From an uncultured delta proteobacterium (GTDB lineage Bacteria > Desulfobacterota > Desulfobaccia > Desulfobaccales > 0-14-0-80-60-11): DNA of 64,000 nt. Shown here piece after piece: positions 12 through 57,910 of this stretch. Numbering within the stretch: the first letter of the stretch is position 1; the number at the start of each line of letters is the position of its first letter. The stretch lies in contig CAWETI010000003.1 of the NCBI GenBank assembly GCA_963812015.1, forward strand, positions 1,056,001-1,120,000, read 5' to 3'. Both the position numbers and the translations under genes were made by a program. The notes below the pieces were generated by a model, which saw only the letters and a program-made list of their open reading frames with translations, searched no databases and was not told the origin of the DNA.

Positions 12-1271
12 ATGAATAAAGATACTTTTTCAGCTAAATGGCAGGATATCGCGAATGATGGCAGCATAGATACATTTGCCCATTTAAATAATCTTTGTTC
101 TGAGAAACTGAAATTATCCAAAAACGATGCTCTCGTTATTCCTAATAATACATTTTTTACAAATAACTTATCAGATTATAATTTATTCTCTGAATGTAGT
201 AAAAATGTAATTCAGGTATTTAATGAAGGAGGAATTAAAGCGCAACTGTATTCTGATGAGAAGGAAAAAAGGGAACTAATACTTAAATCTACCGATATTG
301 TCTTGCCAATTCTTTTATTTTTAGGTTCAAATGTAGTCAATCTTGGCTTAAATATATTAGCTAATATGATTTATGATAAATGGGTAAAAAATAATGTAGC
401 AAAAATACCAAAATTAAAAGCTGAGTATTTAGAAATTGATAATAATGGTTCCATCATTAGGTGGCGCAAAATAGAAGGAGCTGCTAATGAAGTGCAAAAA
501 CTGCTAATTGAGGAGTCACAGAATTTAAAAAAAAAGACATATAAAATTGATAAGACTATTAATAATCGTAAAGATGAATCATGGTGGATTGCCCATTGCG
601 ATAAAATGGCAAAAGAGGCGATAATAGAAGCCAAAAAATTAATTAGAGAGTCTTCTGACGCTACCTCAGAAAATGAAAGAGACAATTGCGAAGAACTTTT
701 AAGAAAAAGTTTGGTAAAAATTCGTGAAGCAGTGCTTTGGAAACCTGATGTTGAATCGTATAAGATATATCTCCATCAAGTTGGACACAAAATTCATGAT
801 ATTTTCGGATGTAAACTTGATTATAGAGAAGAAATGTATTGGGTGACATGCCCTGTATTATTGTCACATTCAAAATGAGTATTTAGTGTTGGCGGTTCTG
901 GAAAAGCTATTTGTTCAATATGTGGAAACAATATCATTGATTGTGATCATGTTAAGGGGGAAATATATAATAATGTAGTTGCGAGGCATTTTGATGAAAT
1001 TTGTAATATTTGCGGAACCCATGAATGTGAACATATTGATGGAAATATTTACAATAAAGTAAACGCATTTGCCATAATATTGGAAGCTAACCTTGATCAT
1101 GTATCATTTGTTGAAAATCCTGCAAATCCGTTATGCGTTGTCCACAAGTATTCTCTCACGAAAACAGATCTTATGAAAATGCTTCCCAAAGATGAGATCG
1201 ATCAATTTATATATGGAAAATCAATAGTTACATGTCATCATTGTTTAATCTGTAATGAAATTAACGGATAA
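12..1271 (+). pseudogene. AT-rich ~419-codon gene interrupted by one in-frame TGA (876-878); Cys/His-rich C-terminal region resembling phage prohead-protease/Zn-binding domains
   Basis: ORFs 12..878 and 1080..1271 share a frame, and the frame is open from 879 to TAA at 1269-1271 (VFSVGGSGKAICSICG...CDHVKG...HVSFVENPANP...CHHCLIC). Markedly lower GC than the flanking genes. Confidence 0.65.
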
Positions 1272-2180: not shown

Positions 2181-2209
2181 TTGACAAATCGCCCCATCCG
2201 GAGTAAAAA
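2181..2209 (+). promoter_or_regulatory. sigma70-type promoter of the Ni/Co transporter leader
   Basis: TTGACA-N17-TAAAAA. Confidence 0.55.
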
Positions 2210-2261
2210 AGGGATAATCCGGGGATGAACCCCGGGAAGTCAAGAAGATCGACACGTCCAG

Positions 2262-2314
2262 AAAGCCACGAAGGCACAGGTGCTTGAAAGCGCCGGGTAG
2301 TCGTGGTTTTTTTT
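2262..2314 (+). promoter_or_regulatory. Leader terminator/attenuator-like RNA motif, copy 1
   Basis: AAAGCCACGA/TCGTGGTTTT stem, inner GGTGCT-TGAA-AGCGCC hairpin and U-tract, lying between promoter and cbiM; a similar copy is at 5584-5643. Confidence 0.65.
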
Positions 2315-2419
2315 GTTCCTGCACCAGGGGTTGCCCAGCCACCGGGCTGGGGAGCGGCCGGGCCGGCCGCCTGAAGCCGGGGGCGCAACCCTCATATACC
2401 GATTTAGGGAGATTTGCTT

Positions 2420-3454
2420 ATGCACATGGCGGATGCCTTGATATCCCCCGCAGTGGGCGGCACTATGTGGGCCGCCACCGCCGGGCTCACCTTATACAGC
2501 GCCAGGAAGCTCAAGCAGGACATGGACGACCGCAAGCTCCCCCTCATGGGGGTCCTGGGGGCCTTTGTCTTCGCGGCCCAAATGATCAACTTCACCATTC
2601 CCGCCACCGGTTCCAGCGGCCATCTGGTGGGCGCCATTATTCTGAGCATCTTGTTGGGACCTTATGCCGCCTTTATTACCCTGGCCTCCGTCATCACGGT
2701 GCAATGCCTGTTTTTTGCCGATGGCGGCTTATTGGCCCTGGGGTGCAATATCTTTAACATGGGATTTTTTGCCTGTTTCATCGCTTATCCGTTCATTTAT
2801 AAAAAGATCGCGGGAGACCGACCGGCCCCGGGCCGCATCCTGCTGGGCGCCATGGCCGCGGCCCTCGTCAGCGTGGAGCTGGGCGCCTTCTCGGTGGTTA
2901 TCGAGACCTTGCTGTCCGGCATCTCGGAATTACCCTTTTTCACCTTTGTGCTCTTGATGCTGCCGATCCACCTGGCCATCGGCGTGGTGGAAGGCCTCAT
3001 CACCGCGGCGGTGGTGACCTTCGTCTGGAAGGCCCGCCCGGAGTTGGTGGAGGCGGCGCCAGCCGCGGCGCCGGGCGCGCCGCGCTCCTTTAAACCGGTC
3101 ATCCTGGGGTTGGTGGCCCTGGCCATTTTCACCGGCGGCCTCCTCTCCTGGTTCGCCTCCACCCACCCGGACGGCCTGGAGTGGTCCGTCAAGGGCGTAA
3201 CCGGCAAGGAGGAGGTTCAGGCGCCCAAGACCGGGGCCCACGGGGCGCTGGCTGCGCTCCAGGAGAAGCTCGCCTTCCTGCCGGACTATGACTTCAGGAA
3301 GCCGGCAGGCGAAAAAGAGGCCAAGAAAGAAGAGAGCTGGCCCGAGGTCAATCCCGGCAAATCCCTGGCAGGGGTGCTGGGGGCCGGCATTACCCTGCTC
3401 CTGGCCGGGGCCATCGGCTTTGGCCTGAAAAGGTATGCTTCGCGCCACGGCTGA
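2420..3454 (+). CDS. cbiM: Ni/Co ECF transporter S component, fused Nik(MN)/CbiM with PDGLE domain
   Basis: N-terminal MHMAD metal-binding start, GSSGHLVG, HPDGLEWS, multiple TM helices. Confidence 0.9.
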   Translation: MHMADALISPAVGGTMWAATAGLTLYSARKLKQDMDDRKLPLMGVLGAFVFAAQMINFTIPATGSSGHLVGAIILSILLGPYAAFITLASVITVQCLFFADGGLLALGCNIFNMGFFACFIAYPFIYKKIAGDRPAPGRILLGAMAAALVSVELGAFSVVIETLLSGISELPFFTFVLLMLPIHLAIGVVEGLITAAVVTFVWKARPELVEAAPAAAPGAPRSFKPVILGLVALAIFTGGLLSWFASTHPDGLEWSVKGVTGKEEVQAPKTGAHGALAALQEKLAFLPDYDFRKPAGEKEAKKEESWPEVNPGKSLAGVLGAGITLLLAGAIGFGLKRYASRHG

Positions 3455-3533: not shown

Positions 3534-4346
3534 ATGGGCACCATCGAAAATTCTCTCTATAATATCGGCTATCTGGAGACGCTGTCCTACCAGGCGACCG
3601 TCATTCACCGGCTGGACCCCCGGGTGAAACTTTTGACCGCCATGGTCTTTATTGTCGCGGTGGTCTCCTTCCCCAAGTACGCCGTCGCGAGCCTGATTCC
3701 CTTTTTTCTCTATCCGGTGGCGCTCATCGCCTTGGGCAATGTGCCCCTTAAGTACCTGGGGAAGAAAATCTTGATCGCCGCGCCCTTTGCCTTTTGCATC
3801 GGCATCTTCAATCCCCTGCTGGACCGGCAGGTCATGGTGCACCTCGGGCCCCTGGCCATTTCCGGCGGTTGGGTCTCCTTTGCCTCCATCATGCTCCGGT
3901 TCATCCTGACGGTGAGCGCCGCCCTGATTCTGGTGGCCGTCACCGGCTTTCACAAGGTCTGTTTTGCCATGGAGAGGCTGGGGATGCCCAGGGCCTTCGC
4001 GCTCCAACTCTTGTTCCTCTACCGCTATCTGTTCGTGCTGGGGGACGAAGCCGCCCGGATGGTGCGGGCCCGGGCCTTGCGGACCTTTGAGGGCCGCGGC
4101 TTGGGCTTTGGGGCCTACAGTTCTATGCTGGGCCACCTGCTGTTGCGCACCCTGGACCGGGCCCAACGCCTGCATCAGGCCATGCTTTCCCGGGGGTTTG
4201 ACGGCGAAATCCGCCTGCTCCGGCCCTTACACCTGAACCGCCGGGATGTCGGGTTTTTCCTGGGTTGGTCCGGTCTGTTCGTGCTGCTCAGGCTGTATAA
4301 CATCTCCCAATGGTGGGGGACCTGGGTAATGGGGCTGGTAAAATGA
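3534..4346 (+). CDS. cbiQ: Ni/Co ECF transporter T component CbiQ/NikQ
   Basis: IHRLDPRVKL, YRYLFVL, AMLSRGF motifs; operon position. Confidence 0.9.
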   Translation: MGTIENSLYNIGYLETLSYQATVIHRLDPRVKLLTAMVFIVAVVSFPKYAVASLIPFFLYPVALIALGNVPLKYLGKKILIAAPFAFCIGIFNPLLDRQVMVHLGPLAISGGWVSFASIMLRFILTVSAALILVAVTGFHKVCFAMERLGMPRAFALQLLFLYRYLFVLGDEAARMVRARALRTFEGRGLGFGAYSSMLGHLLLRTLDRAQRLHQAMLSRGFDGEIRLLRPLHLNRRDVGFFLGWSGLFVLLRLYNISQWWGTWVMGLVK

Positions 4347-5095
4347 GTCACCATATCATTGAGTTGGAAGATCTGTGCTATGCTTACCCGGATGGCAACC
4401 AGGTTTTAAAGGGGATCTCATTCCGGATCACCCATGGGGAGAAGGTGGCCCTGGTGGGGGCCAACGGCGCGGGCAAGTCCACCCTGCTCCTCCAGTTCAA
4501 CGGCTGCCTGCTGCCGGAGTCCGGGCGGGTGCGCATCGGCGATTTGCCCGTGACCAAAAAGACCCTGACGCACGTGCGGCGCACCGTGGGCCTGGTCTTT
4601 CAGGACCCCGACGACCAGCTGTTTATGCCCCTGGTGTTTGACGACGTGGCCTTCGGCCCCTTAAACCTGGGCCTGAGCCCGGAGGAGGTGGAAAGGCAGG
4701 TGACGAAGGCCCTGTCCGCGGTGGGCGCCGTCCATCTGAAGGACCGCCCGCCTTACCACTTGTCCGGCGGGGAAAAACGGGCGGTGGCCATCGCCGCGGT
4801 GCTATCCCTGACCCCGGCCATCCTGGTGATGGATGAGCCGAGCTCCAATCTCGACCCCAAGACCCGCCGCCAACTCATCGAGCTTTTAAAGACCTTCGAG
4901 CACACCCTGATCATCGCCACCCACGACCTGGACCTGGTCCTGGACCTCTGCCCCCGCACCCTGGTGCTCAAGGAAGGCCGTATCGCCGCGGACGGCCCCA
5001 CCCGAGAGATCATGCAGGACGAAGACCTGCTGGAGTCCTGCAACCTGGAGAAGCCCCTGAGGATGCAGGGCTGCCCCCTGTGCCACCCGGCTTGA
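4343..5095 (+). CDS. cbiO: Ni/Co ECF transporter ATPase CbiO/NikO
   Basis: GANGAGKST, FQDPDDQLF, LSGGEK, MDEP; ATGA overlap with cbiQ. Confidence 0.9.
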   Translation: MSHHIIELEDLCYAYPDGNQVLKGISFRITHGEKVALVGANGAGKSTLLLQFNGCLLPESGRVRIGDLPVTKKTLTHVRRTVGLVFQDPDDQLFMPLVFDDVAFGPLNLGLSPEEVERQVTKALSAVGAVHLKDRPPYHLSGGEKRAVAIAAVLSLTPAILVMDEPSSNLDPKTRRQLIELLKTFEHTLIIATHDLDLVLDLCPRTLVLKEGRIAADGPTREIMQDEDLLESCNLEKPLRMQGCPLCHPA

Positions 5096-5157
5096 TTCGG
5101 GCCAGTTGCTGGTGGTGTGTTTCAAATTAAAGTAACAAGGTAAAAAACGGTCTTTTA

Positions 5158-5240
5158 CCCCCCCTTCCTGAAGGGGGGCCAGGGGCGGGTTATAAGCGTT
5201 TGAAATCCCCCTAAATCCCCCTTTTTCAAAGGGGGATTTA
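5158..5240. repeat. Palindromic CCCCCTT..AAGGGGG repeat (family B)
   Basis: AAATCCCCCTAAATCCCCCTTTTTCAAAGGGGGATTT; related to 12015-12106. Confidence 0.7.
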
Positions 5241-5329
5241 CCTGCCAAGTCCGGTGCTCCGACCCCGATTTTATGTCCTGTTAATGGTGAAACGCTCCAA
5301 TAGTTCCGCTGGTTTAGGCTGGGTTCGTA

Positions 5330-5358
5330 TTGACGACAAACGGACTAATGCTTATTTT
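5330..5358 (+). promoter_or_regulatory. Putative sigma70 promoter of the His-rich peptide
   Basis: TTGACG-N17-TATTTT. Confidence 0.4.
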
Positions 5359-5394: not shown

Positions 5395-5556
5395 ATGTGT
5401 TGCCACGACAAAGACAAGCATGAGCACGAGCATAGCCACGAAGGTTGTAGCCACAGCCATGACGGGCACGAGCATAAGCACGAGGCCGGGGTCCATAGTC
5501 ATGAGCATACCCACGCTGATGGGCACCATCAGCACGATCACAAGTGCTGCCATTAA
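5395..5556 (+). CDS. 53-aa His/Cys-rich metal-binding peptide (Hpn-like composition)
   Basis: GGAGGTG SD; MCCHDKDKHEHEHSHEGCSHSHDGHEHKHEAGVHSHEHTHADGHHQHDHKCCH (19 His, 5 Cys); downstream of the Ni/Co transporter. Confidence 0.85.
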   Translation: MCCHDKDKHEHEHSHEGCSHSHDGHEHKHEAGVHSHEHTHADGHHQHDHKCCH

Positions 5557-5583
5557 CGGAAAGCCACGGGTCCGCTAACCATC

Positions 5584-5643
5584 AAGCCACGAAGGCCGTA
5601 TCCGGTGTGAACGCCGGAGAGAGCGTTCGTGGCTTTCTTTTTT
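5584..5643 (+). terminator. Terminator-like RNA motif, copy 2
   Basis: AAGCCACGAA/TTCGTGGCTT stem, inner TCCGGTG-TGAA-CGCCGGA hairpin, then TCTTTTTT. Confidence 0.65.
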
Positions 5644-5724: not shown

Positions 5725-6133
5725 TCAGCCCCCCAGGGGATGGGGCACGGTTTCGGGATCGGTGGGGCCGGGGCCGGCAACTTCTCGCCAGGCCATGAGG
5801 TGGAGGATCCCCGGCCCGGGGTTGGTGATGGCGTGGGCGCAGCCCGGCGGGATGCGGATCAGGGTGCGGTCCCCGGAGATGATGCGCTCCCGGACCTGGC
5901 CGGAGGCGGTTTCCCAGGTGAAGACGCCGACGCCGTGGAAGGGGTAGAGCCACTCTTCATGACCGGGGTGGAGGTGGTGTCCCCGGGTCTGGCCCGGAAT
6001 GGGTGGAGATCAGATGGAAGGTGGACAGCACCCCCCCGGGGACCTTCCGCCGAGCCTGCCAGGGGAAAAAGCTCATGCCCCGGGCGTCGGCCTTGATTTC
6101 GCCGCTCAGATCGATGAAATGAACTTCTGCCAT
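5725..6133 (-). pseudogene. Cupin-fold protein (FdtA/WbjC C-terminal-like) with a 1-bp frameshift near 5998
   Basis: MAEVHFIDLSGEIKADARG...FHLISTH continues in another frame as PGQTRGHHLHPGHEEWLY...IPPGCAHAITN...; span is 409 nt (3n+1). Confidence 0.75.
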
Positions 6134-6263
6134 CCGGTCTCCCCCCTCAAGCCACTCCGGCTGAAACTCCTTAATCTTGCATTTTTGCCGTGATTTGGTA
6201 GAGTGATGCCGCCGGTCCATGCTGAAGAAAAATTCCGGGCCGGCCAGCCGCGAACAGACAGCT

Positions 6264-21765: not shown

Positions 21766-22703
21766 GAAAAATTTTGCCCCACCAGGTGTTCCCAGGTGGC
21801 CAACACCGGCCCCAAAAATTCCGGTTCGCCCTCCCATTGGGCCTGGGTGATGAGGAAGTGCCCCGCGCCCGTGGCCACCAGCAAGCCCTCTCCCGGCACC
21901 CCGGCCGTCACCTGGCCGGGCTCAACCGGCCCCGTGACCGGGGCTGCCATGATCTGGCCGGCCCAGACCAAGAGCTTCCGGCCCTGGAAAAAAGTAAAGG
22001 CGCCGGGGTAGGGATGGGTCACGGCCCGGACCAGATTATAGGTTTGCAGGGCCGAATGCCGCCAGTCAATGAGGCCGTCCCCGGGGGTGCGGCCGCCGTA
22101 ATAGGAGGCCCGGGCGTGGTCCTGGCTCAGGCGAGGGGCGGCGCCGGCCCGCAGCAAAGGGTAGGCTTCCCGCATCAGCGCCTGGGCCGCCACCGTCATT
22201 TTGGCGAACAGGGTCAAGGCCGTGTCTTCGAAGGTGATGGGGACGCGCTGAAAGCCCACGATGTCGCCCTGGTCGGCCTTGGCCTCCATATAGTGGAGGG
22301 TCACCCCGGTTTCGGCCTCGCCGTGGACCAGGACCCAGTTGAGGGGGCAGCGGCCCCGGTACCGGGGGAGGAGGCTGCCGTGGAGGTTCAAGGCCCCCAG
22401 GCGGGGGAGGTCCAGCAGGGGCGGTTTCAGCATGTGGCGATAATAGCACGAAAAGAGCCAATCTGGTTGTAAAGCCTGCATGACGGCCACGAAGGCCGGG
22501 TCATTGGGATTGGCCGGCTGGTAGACCGGCAGGTAGTTCTCGAAGGCCAACTGCCGCACCGAGGCGAACCAGATATTTTCCTTGGGGTCGTCAGCGTGGG
22601 TGACCACCGCGGCGATCTCATCGCCTAACCTGCGGCTCAGCTCGATCAAGGCTTCCAGGCAGACATAGCCGATATTGTGGTAACCCATAAAGATGATGCG
22701 CAT
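21762..22703 (-). CDS. arnA: UDP-L-Ara4N formyltransferase (stand-alone ArnA N-terminal domain)
   Basis: FMGYHNIG, ENIWF, NLHGSLLPRYRG, RAVTHPYPGAF. Confidence 0.9.
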   Translation of the reverse strand: MRIIFMGYHNIGYVCLEALIELSRRLGDEIAAVVTHADDPKENIWFASVRQLAFENYLPVYQPANPNDPAFVAVMQALQPDWLFSCYYRHMLKPPLLDLPRLGALNLHGSLLPRYRGRCPLNWVLVHGEAETGVTLHYMEAKADQGDIVGFQRVPITFEDTALTLFAKMTVAAQALMREAYPLLRAGAAPRLSQDHARASYYGGRTPGDGLIDWRHSALQTYNLVRAVTHPYPGAFTFFQGRKLLVWAGQIMAAPVTGPVEPGQVTAGVPGEGLLVATGAGHFLITQAQWEGEPEFLGPVLATWEHLVGQNFS

Positions 22704-23991: not shown

Positions 23992-24003
23992 TCCCAAAGG
24001 AGG

Positions 24004-24368
24004 CGCGAAGCAGGCCGTAAGCCGAGTTCTGTCCCGGGTTGCCCCGGTGATGATCATTCCTCTAGGACCCCGGTTACCCGGGGCCTCCAGCAACCTACCC
24101 GGGAGCTTCGGGCGGGCCACCCTCAAACGCTCCCCTATTTGGTCTTGCTCCAGGTGGGGTTTTCCAAGCCGGCAATGTCGCCACTGCCGCTGGTGAGCTC
24201 TTACCTCACCCTTTCACCCTTACCGTGGACGTACCACGGCGGTCTGGTCTCTGAGGCACTTTCCCTAGGGTTGCCCCCGCTGGGCGTTACCCAGCACCCT
24301 GCCCTGTGGAGCTCGGACTTTCCTCCGGCGGCTCAAAGGCCGCCGGCGATCATCTGGCCTGCTTCGCG
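24004..24368 (-). ncRNA. rnpB: RNase P RNA (bacterial type A)
   Basis: GAGGAAAGTCCGAGCTCC and ACAGAACTCGGCTTA conserved boxes; paired ends CGCGAAGCAGGCC/GGCCTGCTTCGCG. Confidence 0.97.
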
Positions 24369-27074: not shown

Positions 27075-27150
27075 TGGTGGGCCCACCCGGATTTGAACCA
27101 GGGACCGTCCGGTTATGAGCCGGTTGCTCTAACCGCTGAGCTATGGGCCC
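27075..27150 (-). tRNA. tRNA-Ile2 (CAT anticodon, lysidine type)
   Basis: GGGCCCATAGCTCAGCGGTTAGAGCAACCGGCTCATAACCGG...GGTTCAAATCC...CCCACCA; lies downstream of rpoD. Confidence 0.9.
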
Positions 27151-57424: not shown

Positions 57425-57580
57425 TTAAGGAGCATGGGCGGTATGGGTGACGGCCCCCGGGGCGAAACCAGGCCCGCCGGAGGGTTGGCCTGTCTGAACC
57501 GGAGGTTGGTATGTTGCGGGAAGGCGCCCGTTAGGTTTAAAAGAATGCGCCTCGGGCGCATCTATGCAGATGTCCGGCAT
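57425..57580 (-). CDS. Putative 51-aa upstream ORF immediately after the riboswitch
   Basis: GGAGGAGG SD directly before ATG; MPDICIDAPEAHSFKPNGRLPATYQPPVQTGQPSGGPGFAPGAVTHTAHAP. Confidence 0.35.
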   Translation of the reverse strand: MPDICIDAPEAHSFKPNGRLPATYQPPVQTGQPSGGPGFAPGAVTHTAHAP

Positions 57581-57584
57581 ATCC

Positions 57585-57722
57585 TCCTCCTGCCTGCGGG
57601 GTTAGCTGTCGGGCTCGGGCGGGAGGTTGCGTGCCCTACCGCATTTACGAAAAATGCGGATTCGCCCCAACAAAACGGGTCCCCCGCTTCTCCGATGGGG
57701 TATCGGAGAACTCGGCGGTCAG
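57585..57722 (-). ncRNA. c-di-AMP (ydaO/yuaA) riboswitch
   Basis: CGCCGAG...GCGGGGGACCC...GGGGCGAATC...GTAGGG...CCCGAGCCCGACAGCTAACCCCGCAGGC. Confidence 0.92.
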
Positions 57723-57910
57723 CCTCGTGGTGATTTGACTAACAAATAATAATAGTAATCTTTTTTTCAGAGAGGTCAATGAAAATTGACCCGAACCCCA
57801 CGGGTGGGTTACGTTTAAGAAAACGAGAATTAGCCGACGTCGCGGGACAAGATCACCTGGGTGTTCAAAGGATTAGTTGAACCACCACCATCCCATGCGG
57901 AGAACGATCC

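Follow-up and report, generated by a model that had tools for sequence, protein, structure and literature searches.

How does a bacterium that lacks the nickel regulator NikR control its uptake of nickel? Nickel enzymes are essential to acetogens, syntrophs and sulfate reducers, and about half of the 301 Desulfobacterota genomes in our survey are without NikR. The locus studied here poses the question in a concrete form. It lies in a 64,000-nucleotide stretch of DNA from an uncultured delta proteobacterium (assembly GCA_963812015.1, contig CAWETI010000003.1), which we call the window. A profile search with positive controls found no NikR_C domain in the source genome (G000), and there is no NikR box with three or fewer mismatches within 2101-2430, just ahead of the genes for a nickel/cobalt importer. 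The original prediction, made from the letters of the window, placed a metal-responsive attenuator RNA in this leader. The leader and the genes behind it contain the following features.

2181..2209, plus strand: candidate sigma-70 promoter, read from the sequence (-35 TTGACA at 2181-2186, 17-nt spacer, weak -10 TAAAAA at 2204-2209)
2219..2235, plus strand: H1a, upstream hairpin of 6 bp with an AUGAA loop, -12.5 kcal/mol
2239..2249, plus strand: H1b, possible weak 3-bp hairpin, C-AAGAA-G, which is the family's commonest loop
2262..2314, plus strand: intrinsic terminator; the 57-nt stretch 2260-2316 computes as a terminator-type hairpin of -25.1 kcal/mol, z -4.3
2262-2272: 5' arm of the terminator
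2265..2275, plus strand: H2, alternative hairpin of 3 bp around an ACGAA loop, -4.0 kcal/mol; proposed protein-binding site
2279-2294: H3, inner hairpin with a UGAA loop, within the terminator
2300-2310: 3' arm of the terminator
2307-2314: U-tract of the terminator, T8
2420..3454, plus strand: fused CbiM and PDGLE (NikMN-type) ECF substrate component, start ATG at 2420 (Pfam CbiM and PDGLE)
3534..4346, plus strand: CbiQ/NikQ ECF T component (TIGR02454 over cut-off)
4343..5095, plus strand: CbiO/NikO ATPase (TIGR01166 over cut-off)

The candidate promoter sequence that had been described ahead of cbiM is indeed present, with a weak -10 element; it is absent from our consensus-scan promoter list. 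Judging from its position, transcription would start near 2216. The upstream hairpin with its ATGAA loop, placed by the original prediction at 2218-2236, is likewise present, at 2219-2235, and the arrangement around the inner hairpin held, except that the sequence quoted earlier falls short by 3 nt before and 6 nt after that hairpin. H1b shows no fold when computed alone (0 kcal/mol). Because H2 overlaps the 5' arm of the terminator, the two folds are mutually exclusive.

Several observations bear on whether this arrangement could be fortuitous. The 12-nt core of the element matches five times at one or fewer mismatches in the 64-kb window, against 0.42 expected. Two of these matches are exact; the others are the 3' arm itself, a site inside a His-rich ORF and a site at 22485. 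An Rfam comparison of the leader, proposed along with the original prediction, matched no known family; none reached the gathering score, and at E values up to 10 there was nothing beyond two chance rows. From the core count and the fold z-scores, we conclude that the leader is a real element and not a product of chance. In four of 15 metatranscriptome runs, all with small shares, one contig of a relative spans 2191-2447 and another spans 2253-2548; such contigs show no ends, strand or level, and we give them no weight.

Two further details of the region belong here. The one-mismatch copies of the core are at 5434-5445 and 22485-22496 on the plus strand, the former consisting of His-Glu-Gly codons of the His-rich ORF, with no hairpin kept in the paralogue. 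Additionally, the terminator is followed by a long GC-rich hairpin (2325-2391, plus strand) ahead of the ribosome-binding site; its z-score of -1.2 is not significant.

Related copies provided a view of how the two folds have been maintained. We compiled 174 non-redundant copies, namely the pattern matches in loci L001-L241 minus L153-L154 with chance matches kept. The variable pair of the terminator stem, CCAY/RTGG, was C-G in 146 copies, U-A in 17, U-G in 10 and mismatched in one; as the pattern restricts both letters of this pair, the counts show coupling and not identity. The bases flanking the ACGAA loop formed a Watson-Crick pair in 122 of the 174 copies, compared to 88 ± 5 (maximum 107) over 2000 shuffles. 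For the next H2 pair the count was 91, compared to 57 ± 6 (maximum 78). These shuffles do not keep the relatedness of the copies. The split between A-U and G-C at the H2 pairs is seen in every GC tertile. Since these pairs draw their 3' bases from outside the terminator stem, the covariation signal belongs to H2. Two mutually exclusive folds, both with compensatory changes, are supported by these data. They also correct an earlier reading of the AGGC internal loop as unpaired: it is conserved because GGY pairs with RCC in the alternative hairpin.

Across the family, the computed energy of H2 is about -4 kcal/mol and the median for the terminator is -27, so that H2 needs a stabilizer. The surrounding hairpins suggest what kind. 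An upstream hairpin with an (A)NGAA loop was found in 82 of 152 copies, compared to 14 in shuffles (maximum 26). An NGAA or NNGAA loop inside the terminator occurs in 45 of the 152, compared to 4 in shuffles (maximum 10), so that the TGAA loop, once listed among the conserved parts, varies within the family. By the same test, 49 copies have neither hairpin. The spacing of H1 varies across the family (mostly 42-90 nt), with H1 about 30-75 nt away from H2. The same loop thus recurs upstream and inside, as expected for repeated protein sites. A short repeated loop with variable stems and spacing fits a protein site and would be hard to square with a metal aptamer, for which the conserved part of about 11 nt also seems small. 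In the window, the AUG of the H1a loop opens a 20-codon frame that runs through the 5' arm. We rejected a leader-peptide attenuator, as the frame and its length differ in the other leader copies of this genome and the commonest H1 loop has no AUG.

These properties bear on the possibility that the RNA is itself a riboswitch for a metal ion or metal complex, with GAA loops that bind nickel or cobalt and DUF3842, a protein family discussed below, acting only as a co-regulated chaperone. The core sequence is strongly conserved, the expression platform is clear, and magnesium OFF-switches on uptake genes are among the systems described in PMC11672702. Against this, the conserved core is very small, the H1 spacing varies and there is no junction. 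We consider a direct riboswitch improbable, and the distribution of DUF3842, described below, argues in the same direction.

We next asked what genes the motif accompanies. The source genome holds seven copies, six found by a bipartite pattern and the seventh by a looser one, and all seven are at metal loci, which bears out the predicted association with metal genes rather than a genome-wide scatter. Five precede metal-uptake or outer-membrane genes: the window copy stands before the only CbiM-family gene of the genome (a single match), three copies precede TonB-dependent receptors, and one precedes a probable outer-membrane protein of 358 residues, without a Pfam match, just after cbiK. Each of these five leader copies has an upstream hairpin with an AUGAA loop. 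The other two lie 3' of paralogous genes for 53-residue His-rich peptides. The five cobalamin riboswitches of the genome lie outside the window, in which RF00174 has no match. One metal locus, G000:C2:743644-741878 (minus strand), has two RNA switches: a cobalamin riboswitch ahead of cbiK, and an attenuator copy that belongs to the gene after it.

Beyond this genome, a strict pattern matched 70 of the 301 Desulfobacterota genomes, and its reversed control matched one. A GTDB scan returned at least 122 stretches from Desulfobacterota, Clostridia, Peptococcaceae and Nitrospirota, some of them evident chance matches. We tallied the first gene for the first 80 GTDB loci among the matches listed, 79 of which have a downstream sense ORF (names at E 1e-8, tally by hand, all rows kept). 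It was a transport or uptake gene in 30 of the 79: CbiM in 6, DUF4198/NikK in 5, a TonB-receptor plug in 5, a family-5 binding protein in 3 and others in 11. The remaining first genes were FmdE (4), DUF3842 (3), SAM methyltransferases (6), tetrapyrrole methylases (2), other genes (12) and unnamed ORFs (22). Clustering the ORFs of 152 loci gave a similar picture, with CbiM in 30, CbiO-type ATPases in 27, TonB receptors in 23, CbiQ and DUF4198 in 19 each, CooT in 12 and DUF3842 in 10; these names come from cluster representatives, and 42 of the loci are only about 650 nt long. In some Clostridia (L103, L201 and L031), the gene behind the motif is not a transporter but encodes an iron alcohol dehydrogenase or a glycyl-radical (PFL-like) enzyme. 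Such targets point to neither nickel nor cobalt and are not explained by a pure nickel-uptake regulon.

One might still regard the hairpin as an ordinary constitutive terminator or a short repeat that does not switch. The terminator is the minimum-energy fold, about 8 kcal/mol below the fold forced to contain H2, and two copies in the source genome do end a gene. Nevertheless, its five other copies each have a promoter-like site on one side and a sense gene on the other, covariation backs the second, exclusive fold, and the context is metal-specific across phyla at a background of one reversed match in 301 genomes; we give this explanation almost no credence. The family is, with very high probability, an uncatalogued attenuator of nickel/cobalt uptake genes that spans several phyla. 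We found no description of the motif in the literature, including the main texts of PMC11109978 and PMC8632094, whose supplements may still list it. The earlier idea of a switch controlled by a ligand or protein thus survives in its broad outline, as a conserved attenuator at Ni/Co uptake genes, but the switching element is the ACGAA-loop hairpin that overlaps the terminator and not the internal loop.

The second copy in the window, at 5584-5643, was predicted to repeat the leader architecture. It is present and keeps the TGAA loop, on an inner stem of another sequence. However, it lies after a peptide gene and not in a leader, and it belongs to a different class, which we call class B.

5330..5358, plus strand: putative promoter for the His-rich peptide gene (9 of 12 in the consensus scan; similar sites upstream in relatives)
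5395..5556, plus strand: 53-residue His/Cys-rich peptide, with Cys-Cys-His at both ends
5558..5568, plus strand: segment X, a second complement of the 3' arm, 1 nt after the peptide stop codon
5584..5643, plus strand: class B copy with an interrupted U-tract, -33.8 kcal/mol, z -5.6 (H2 5586-5596, inner hairpin 5601-5618, 3' arm 5626-5637)

The peptide is probably a metal-binding or storage peptide; it has no match in Pfam or NCBIfam. A metagenome scan for the peptide end together with the core returned at least 120 stretches. Among the matches listed, most have the same 53-residue peptide and their own promoter-like site, the length and ends of the peptide are conserved in 79 distinct metagenome and window copies, and no conserved sense gene follows the class B copies. 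Segment X offers the 3' arm a second partner. With X included, the window copy is bistable, its two folds being computed at -36.7 and -37.2 kcal/mol. Among the matches listed, the spacing between the stop codon and X is 1 nt in 72 of 81 copies. Covariation between X and the 3' arm (58 vs 12 of 75 scored) is probably one event in one clade. The X-paired fold displays both H2 and H3 and differs from the terminator fold by only about 1 kcal/mol (median -1.0), and an X-like segment is found in only 3 of 183 leader-type copies. By its placement, the class B copy is a distinct 3' form that appears to regulate no downstream gene. A ribosome at the peptide stop codon would cover X, and class B might therefore act as a decoy for the regulator or control the 3' end of the peptide mRNA, gated by translation in either case. 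That the pyrimidine tail of class B pairs with the ribosome-binding site of the peptide can be set aside: own pairs gave -11.4 kcal/mol, compared to -11.0 ± 0.3 kcal/mol for cross pairs.

The surroundings of these elements have features of their own. Between cbiO and the His-rich gene, at about 5155-5245, is a REP-like repeat that has very high contig depth in RNA runs and is missing in some relatives (joint 5101-5311); a 21-mer of it matches 64 times in the genome at two or fewer mismatches. A gene at about 5725-6135 on the minus strand, which we take to be cupin-like, converges on the class B copy and is seemingly split over two frames near 6005. The relative L251 has one 148-codon frame at this place, and a 94-residue piece of the split gene has no Pfam match. 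At the start of the window (12-1271, plus strand), an AT-rich 288-codon ORF stops at TGA 876-878, after which the frame stays open for 130 further, CxxC-rich codons. This TGA could be either a nonsense change or a recoded stop; the first part of the ORF has no NCBIfam match. The window also contains three other RNA features.

57577-57727, minus strand: c-di-AMP riboswitch
24003-24365, minus strand: RNase P RNA
27078-27150, minus strand: tRNA

What, then, would stabilize H2? We profiled four candidate families across the genomes. Among the 301 genomes, DUF3842 is present in 117, CooT in 183 and NikR in 143. DUF3842 accompanies the motif in 67 of 70 motif genomes, the three exceptions being 80-90% complete, and the motif occurs in only 3 of the 184 genomes without DUF3842. 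NikR shows the opposite trend, with 7 of the 70 motif genomes carrying it, compared to 136 of the other 231, and NikR and DUF3842 are found together in just 15 genomes. The genomes are kin, and these counts overstate independence. By family, 28 of 98 carry the motif and all 28 have DUF3842, and families f32, f35 and f51 each contain NikR-only members beside members with the motif and DUF3842 but without NikR. A looser pattern matched 22 of 50 further DUF3842 genomes, compared to 1 of 30 without it; this control consisted of the first 30 of the 184 DUF3842-less genomes by handle, and its single match looks coding. Neither pattern matched 28 of the 117 DUF3842 genomes of the phylum.

Outside the phylum, all five motif genomes have DUF3842. 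In 151 Clostridia genomes the loose pattern matched 19, 13 of them with DUF3842 (one genome was unscored for it). By eye, 9 of the 19 are chance matches that are coding or have a short U-run. The remaining 10 all have DUF3842 and only four have CooT, which is found in 12 of the 151. Therefore DUF3842, and not CooT, is the common denominator. DUF3842 also occurs in 54 of 150 Clostridia genomes, 44 of which have no credible motif match; the protein may have another role there, or the RNA may diverge. In six loci (L083, L087, L105, L197, L177 and L181) the motif stands directly before DUF3842 itself.

This association is much closer than a mere target would be expected to show, given that DUF3842 is rare in NikR genomes (15 of 143), and it tells against a metal-sensing RNA with DUF3842 as a bystander. 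It also weighs on CooT, a small nickel-binding beta protein (PMC6006190), as the sole reader of the RNA. By hand count, CooT occurs in the absence of DUF3842 in about 69 genomes, just three of which have the motif; moreover, six of the roughly 10 credible Clostridia are without a CooT match, one of them carrying three copies of the motif. We judge it very unlikely that CooT reads the RNA alone. Taking the anatomy of the RNA together with the co-distribution of DUF3842, the attenuator is probably read by a protein and does not bind the metal directly.

Whether DUF3842 is itself that protein is less certain. Its predicted structure, a lone Rossmann-like domain (pLDDT 97), contains a glycine-rich loop, and no solved structure is a close relative (best Z 9.6); fold searches returned generic Rossmann-like matches, and the ESM Atlas returned only DUF3842 clusters. 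Conservation is highest at Gly, Asp, Glu, Asn and Met residues, and just two Lys are conserved, a pattern that seems more typical of enzymes or ligand-binding proteins than of classical RNA binders. On the model and this atypical conservation, DUF3842 may be either the reader or a required sensor. A complex prediction for DUF3842 with CooT scored 0.03, which speaks neither for nor against an interaction. There are six longer DUF3842 homologues; in one of them the same record also contains CooT, perhaps through a read-through artefact. In the literature we found DUF3842 only in one unrelated paper. Passages of a CooT deletion study in C. autoethanogenum describe CooT's neighbor as His-rich and do not name DUF3842 (PMC10230548).

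The structural features leave room for an arrangement in which DUF3842 senses the metal or handles a small signal and another protein reads the hairpins. The Rossmann-like fold and the acidic and glycine conservation would suit such a division of labor, and a reader could have escaped a survey of four families. Yet no other gene of unassigned function recurs near the motif, where after transporters CooT and DUF3842 are the most frequent in the 152 loci, and DUF3842 lies under the motif itself, as regulators often do. We regard a separate reader as a minority prospect, and from the gene distribution we lean towards DUF3842 as the reader of the putative attenuator, alone or in a complex.

We propose the following mechanism. 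By default, the nascent RNA would fold into the terminator and the nickel/cobalt importer would go untranscribed. Under nickel shortage, the (A)NGAA-loop hairpins, H2 being helped by H1 and/or H3, would be bound by a trans-acting factor, for which DUF3842, or a complex dependent on it, is the likeliest candidate. The bound factor would hold the 5' arm of the terminator in H2 and RNA polymerase would read through. CooT would be a frequent but dispensable sensor partner. In lineages without NikR, this system would do NikR's job. Nickel is favored as the signal by the near-exclusion between the motif and NikR, the NikR-type targets and the nickel-binding CooT. Cobalt may also be the signal: CobN, ChlI or tetrapyrrole methylases follow some of the copies, and the source genome has only one importer of the CbiM type. 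The uptake targets point to an OFF response to metal.

A bolder version of the proposal is tentative at best. It would make DUF3842, a bare Rossmann-like domain, a new type of RNA-binding antiterminator that is tuned by CooT, governs an entire nickel-uptake regulon through RNA and replaces NikR across several anaerobic phyla, with class B copies serving as ribosome-gated decoys through which translation of the peptide feeds back on the regulator. At either level, the motif and DUF3842 are a candidate answer to how nickel uptake is controlled without NikR, and they suggest a function for DUF3842 and a second role for CooT. We found no description of protein-read antitermination for a transition metal in the literature. 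In practice, the motif can mark nickel-related transporters for annotation, and it might be developed into a compact genetic part that responds to metal in anaerobes.

How does the motif compare to known systems? Like the NiCo (czcD) riboswitch, it would control nickel/cobalt-related transport by termination at the RNA level. However, the NiCo riboswitch is a four-way junction ON-switch before efflux genes, whereas the motif is a small hairpin set before uptake genes (PMC11672702, PMC9294342). The leader has neither a NiCo Rfam match nor a four-way junction, and the original prediction was right to see neither this riboswitch nor a cobalamin riboswitch here. The NikR regulon of delta-proteobacteria includes nik(MN)QO, nikK and nikL (Rodionov et al. 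2004, PMC545781), the same target genes as those of the motif. NikR binds a DNA inverted repeat with a 13-14-nt spacer, in contrast to the strand-specific motif with its variable paired interior and U-tract (PMC545781). The RAT elements of BglG and SacY share with our proposal a weak, terminator-overlapping hairpin that needs a protein to win, but RAT is a single 29-30-nt stem-loop with different targets (PMC3369931), and the motif has no Rfam match.

The closest parallel is with the targets of the ANTAR proteins EutV, NasR and AmiR, which consist of two hairpins, about 5-12 nt apart, whose six-nt loops have A1 and G4 (Ramesh et al. 2012, PMC3369931). As in those targets, the motif has small tandem hairpins with a shared loop, the last of which overlaps the 5' arm of an intrinsic terminator, and it has a conserved closing pair and an A first in the loop (PMC3369931). 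Unlike them, its loops are of 5 nt (ANGAA, with G at position 3) or 4 nt (NGAA), its linkers in the window are 29 nt (H1a-H2) and 15 nt (H1b-H2) and mostly longer in the family, a third loop lies inside the terminator, and the targets are in metal uptake and not nitrogen metabolism (PMC3369931). An ANTAR domain search gave no match in the source genome, which is 99.9% complete, and was positive in four of four Clostridia controls. The motif is thus ANTAR-like in its logic, and its loop, its linker and the protein complement of its host set it apart from the ANTAR targets.
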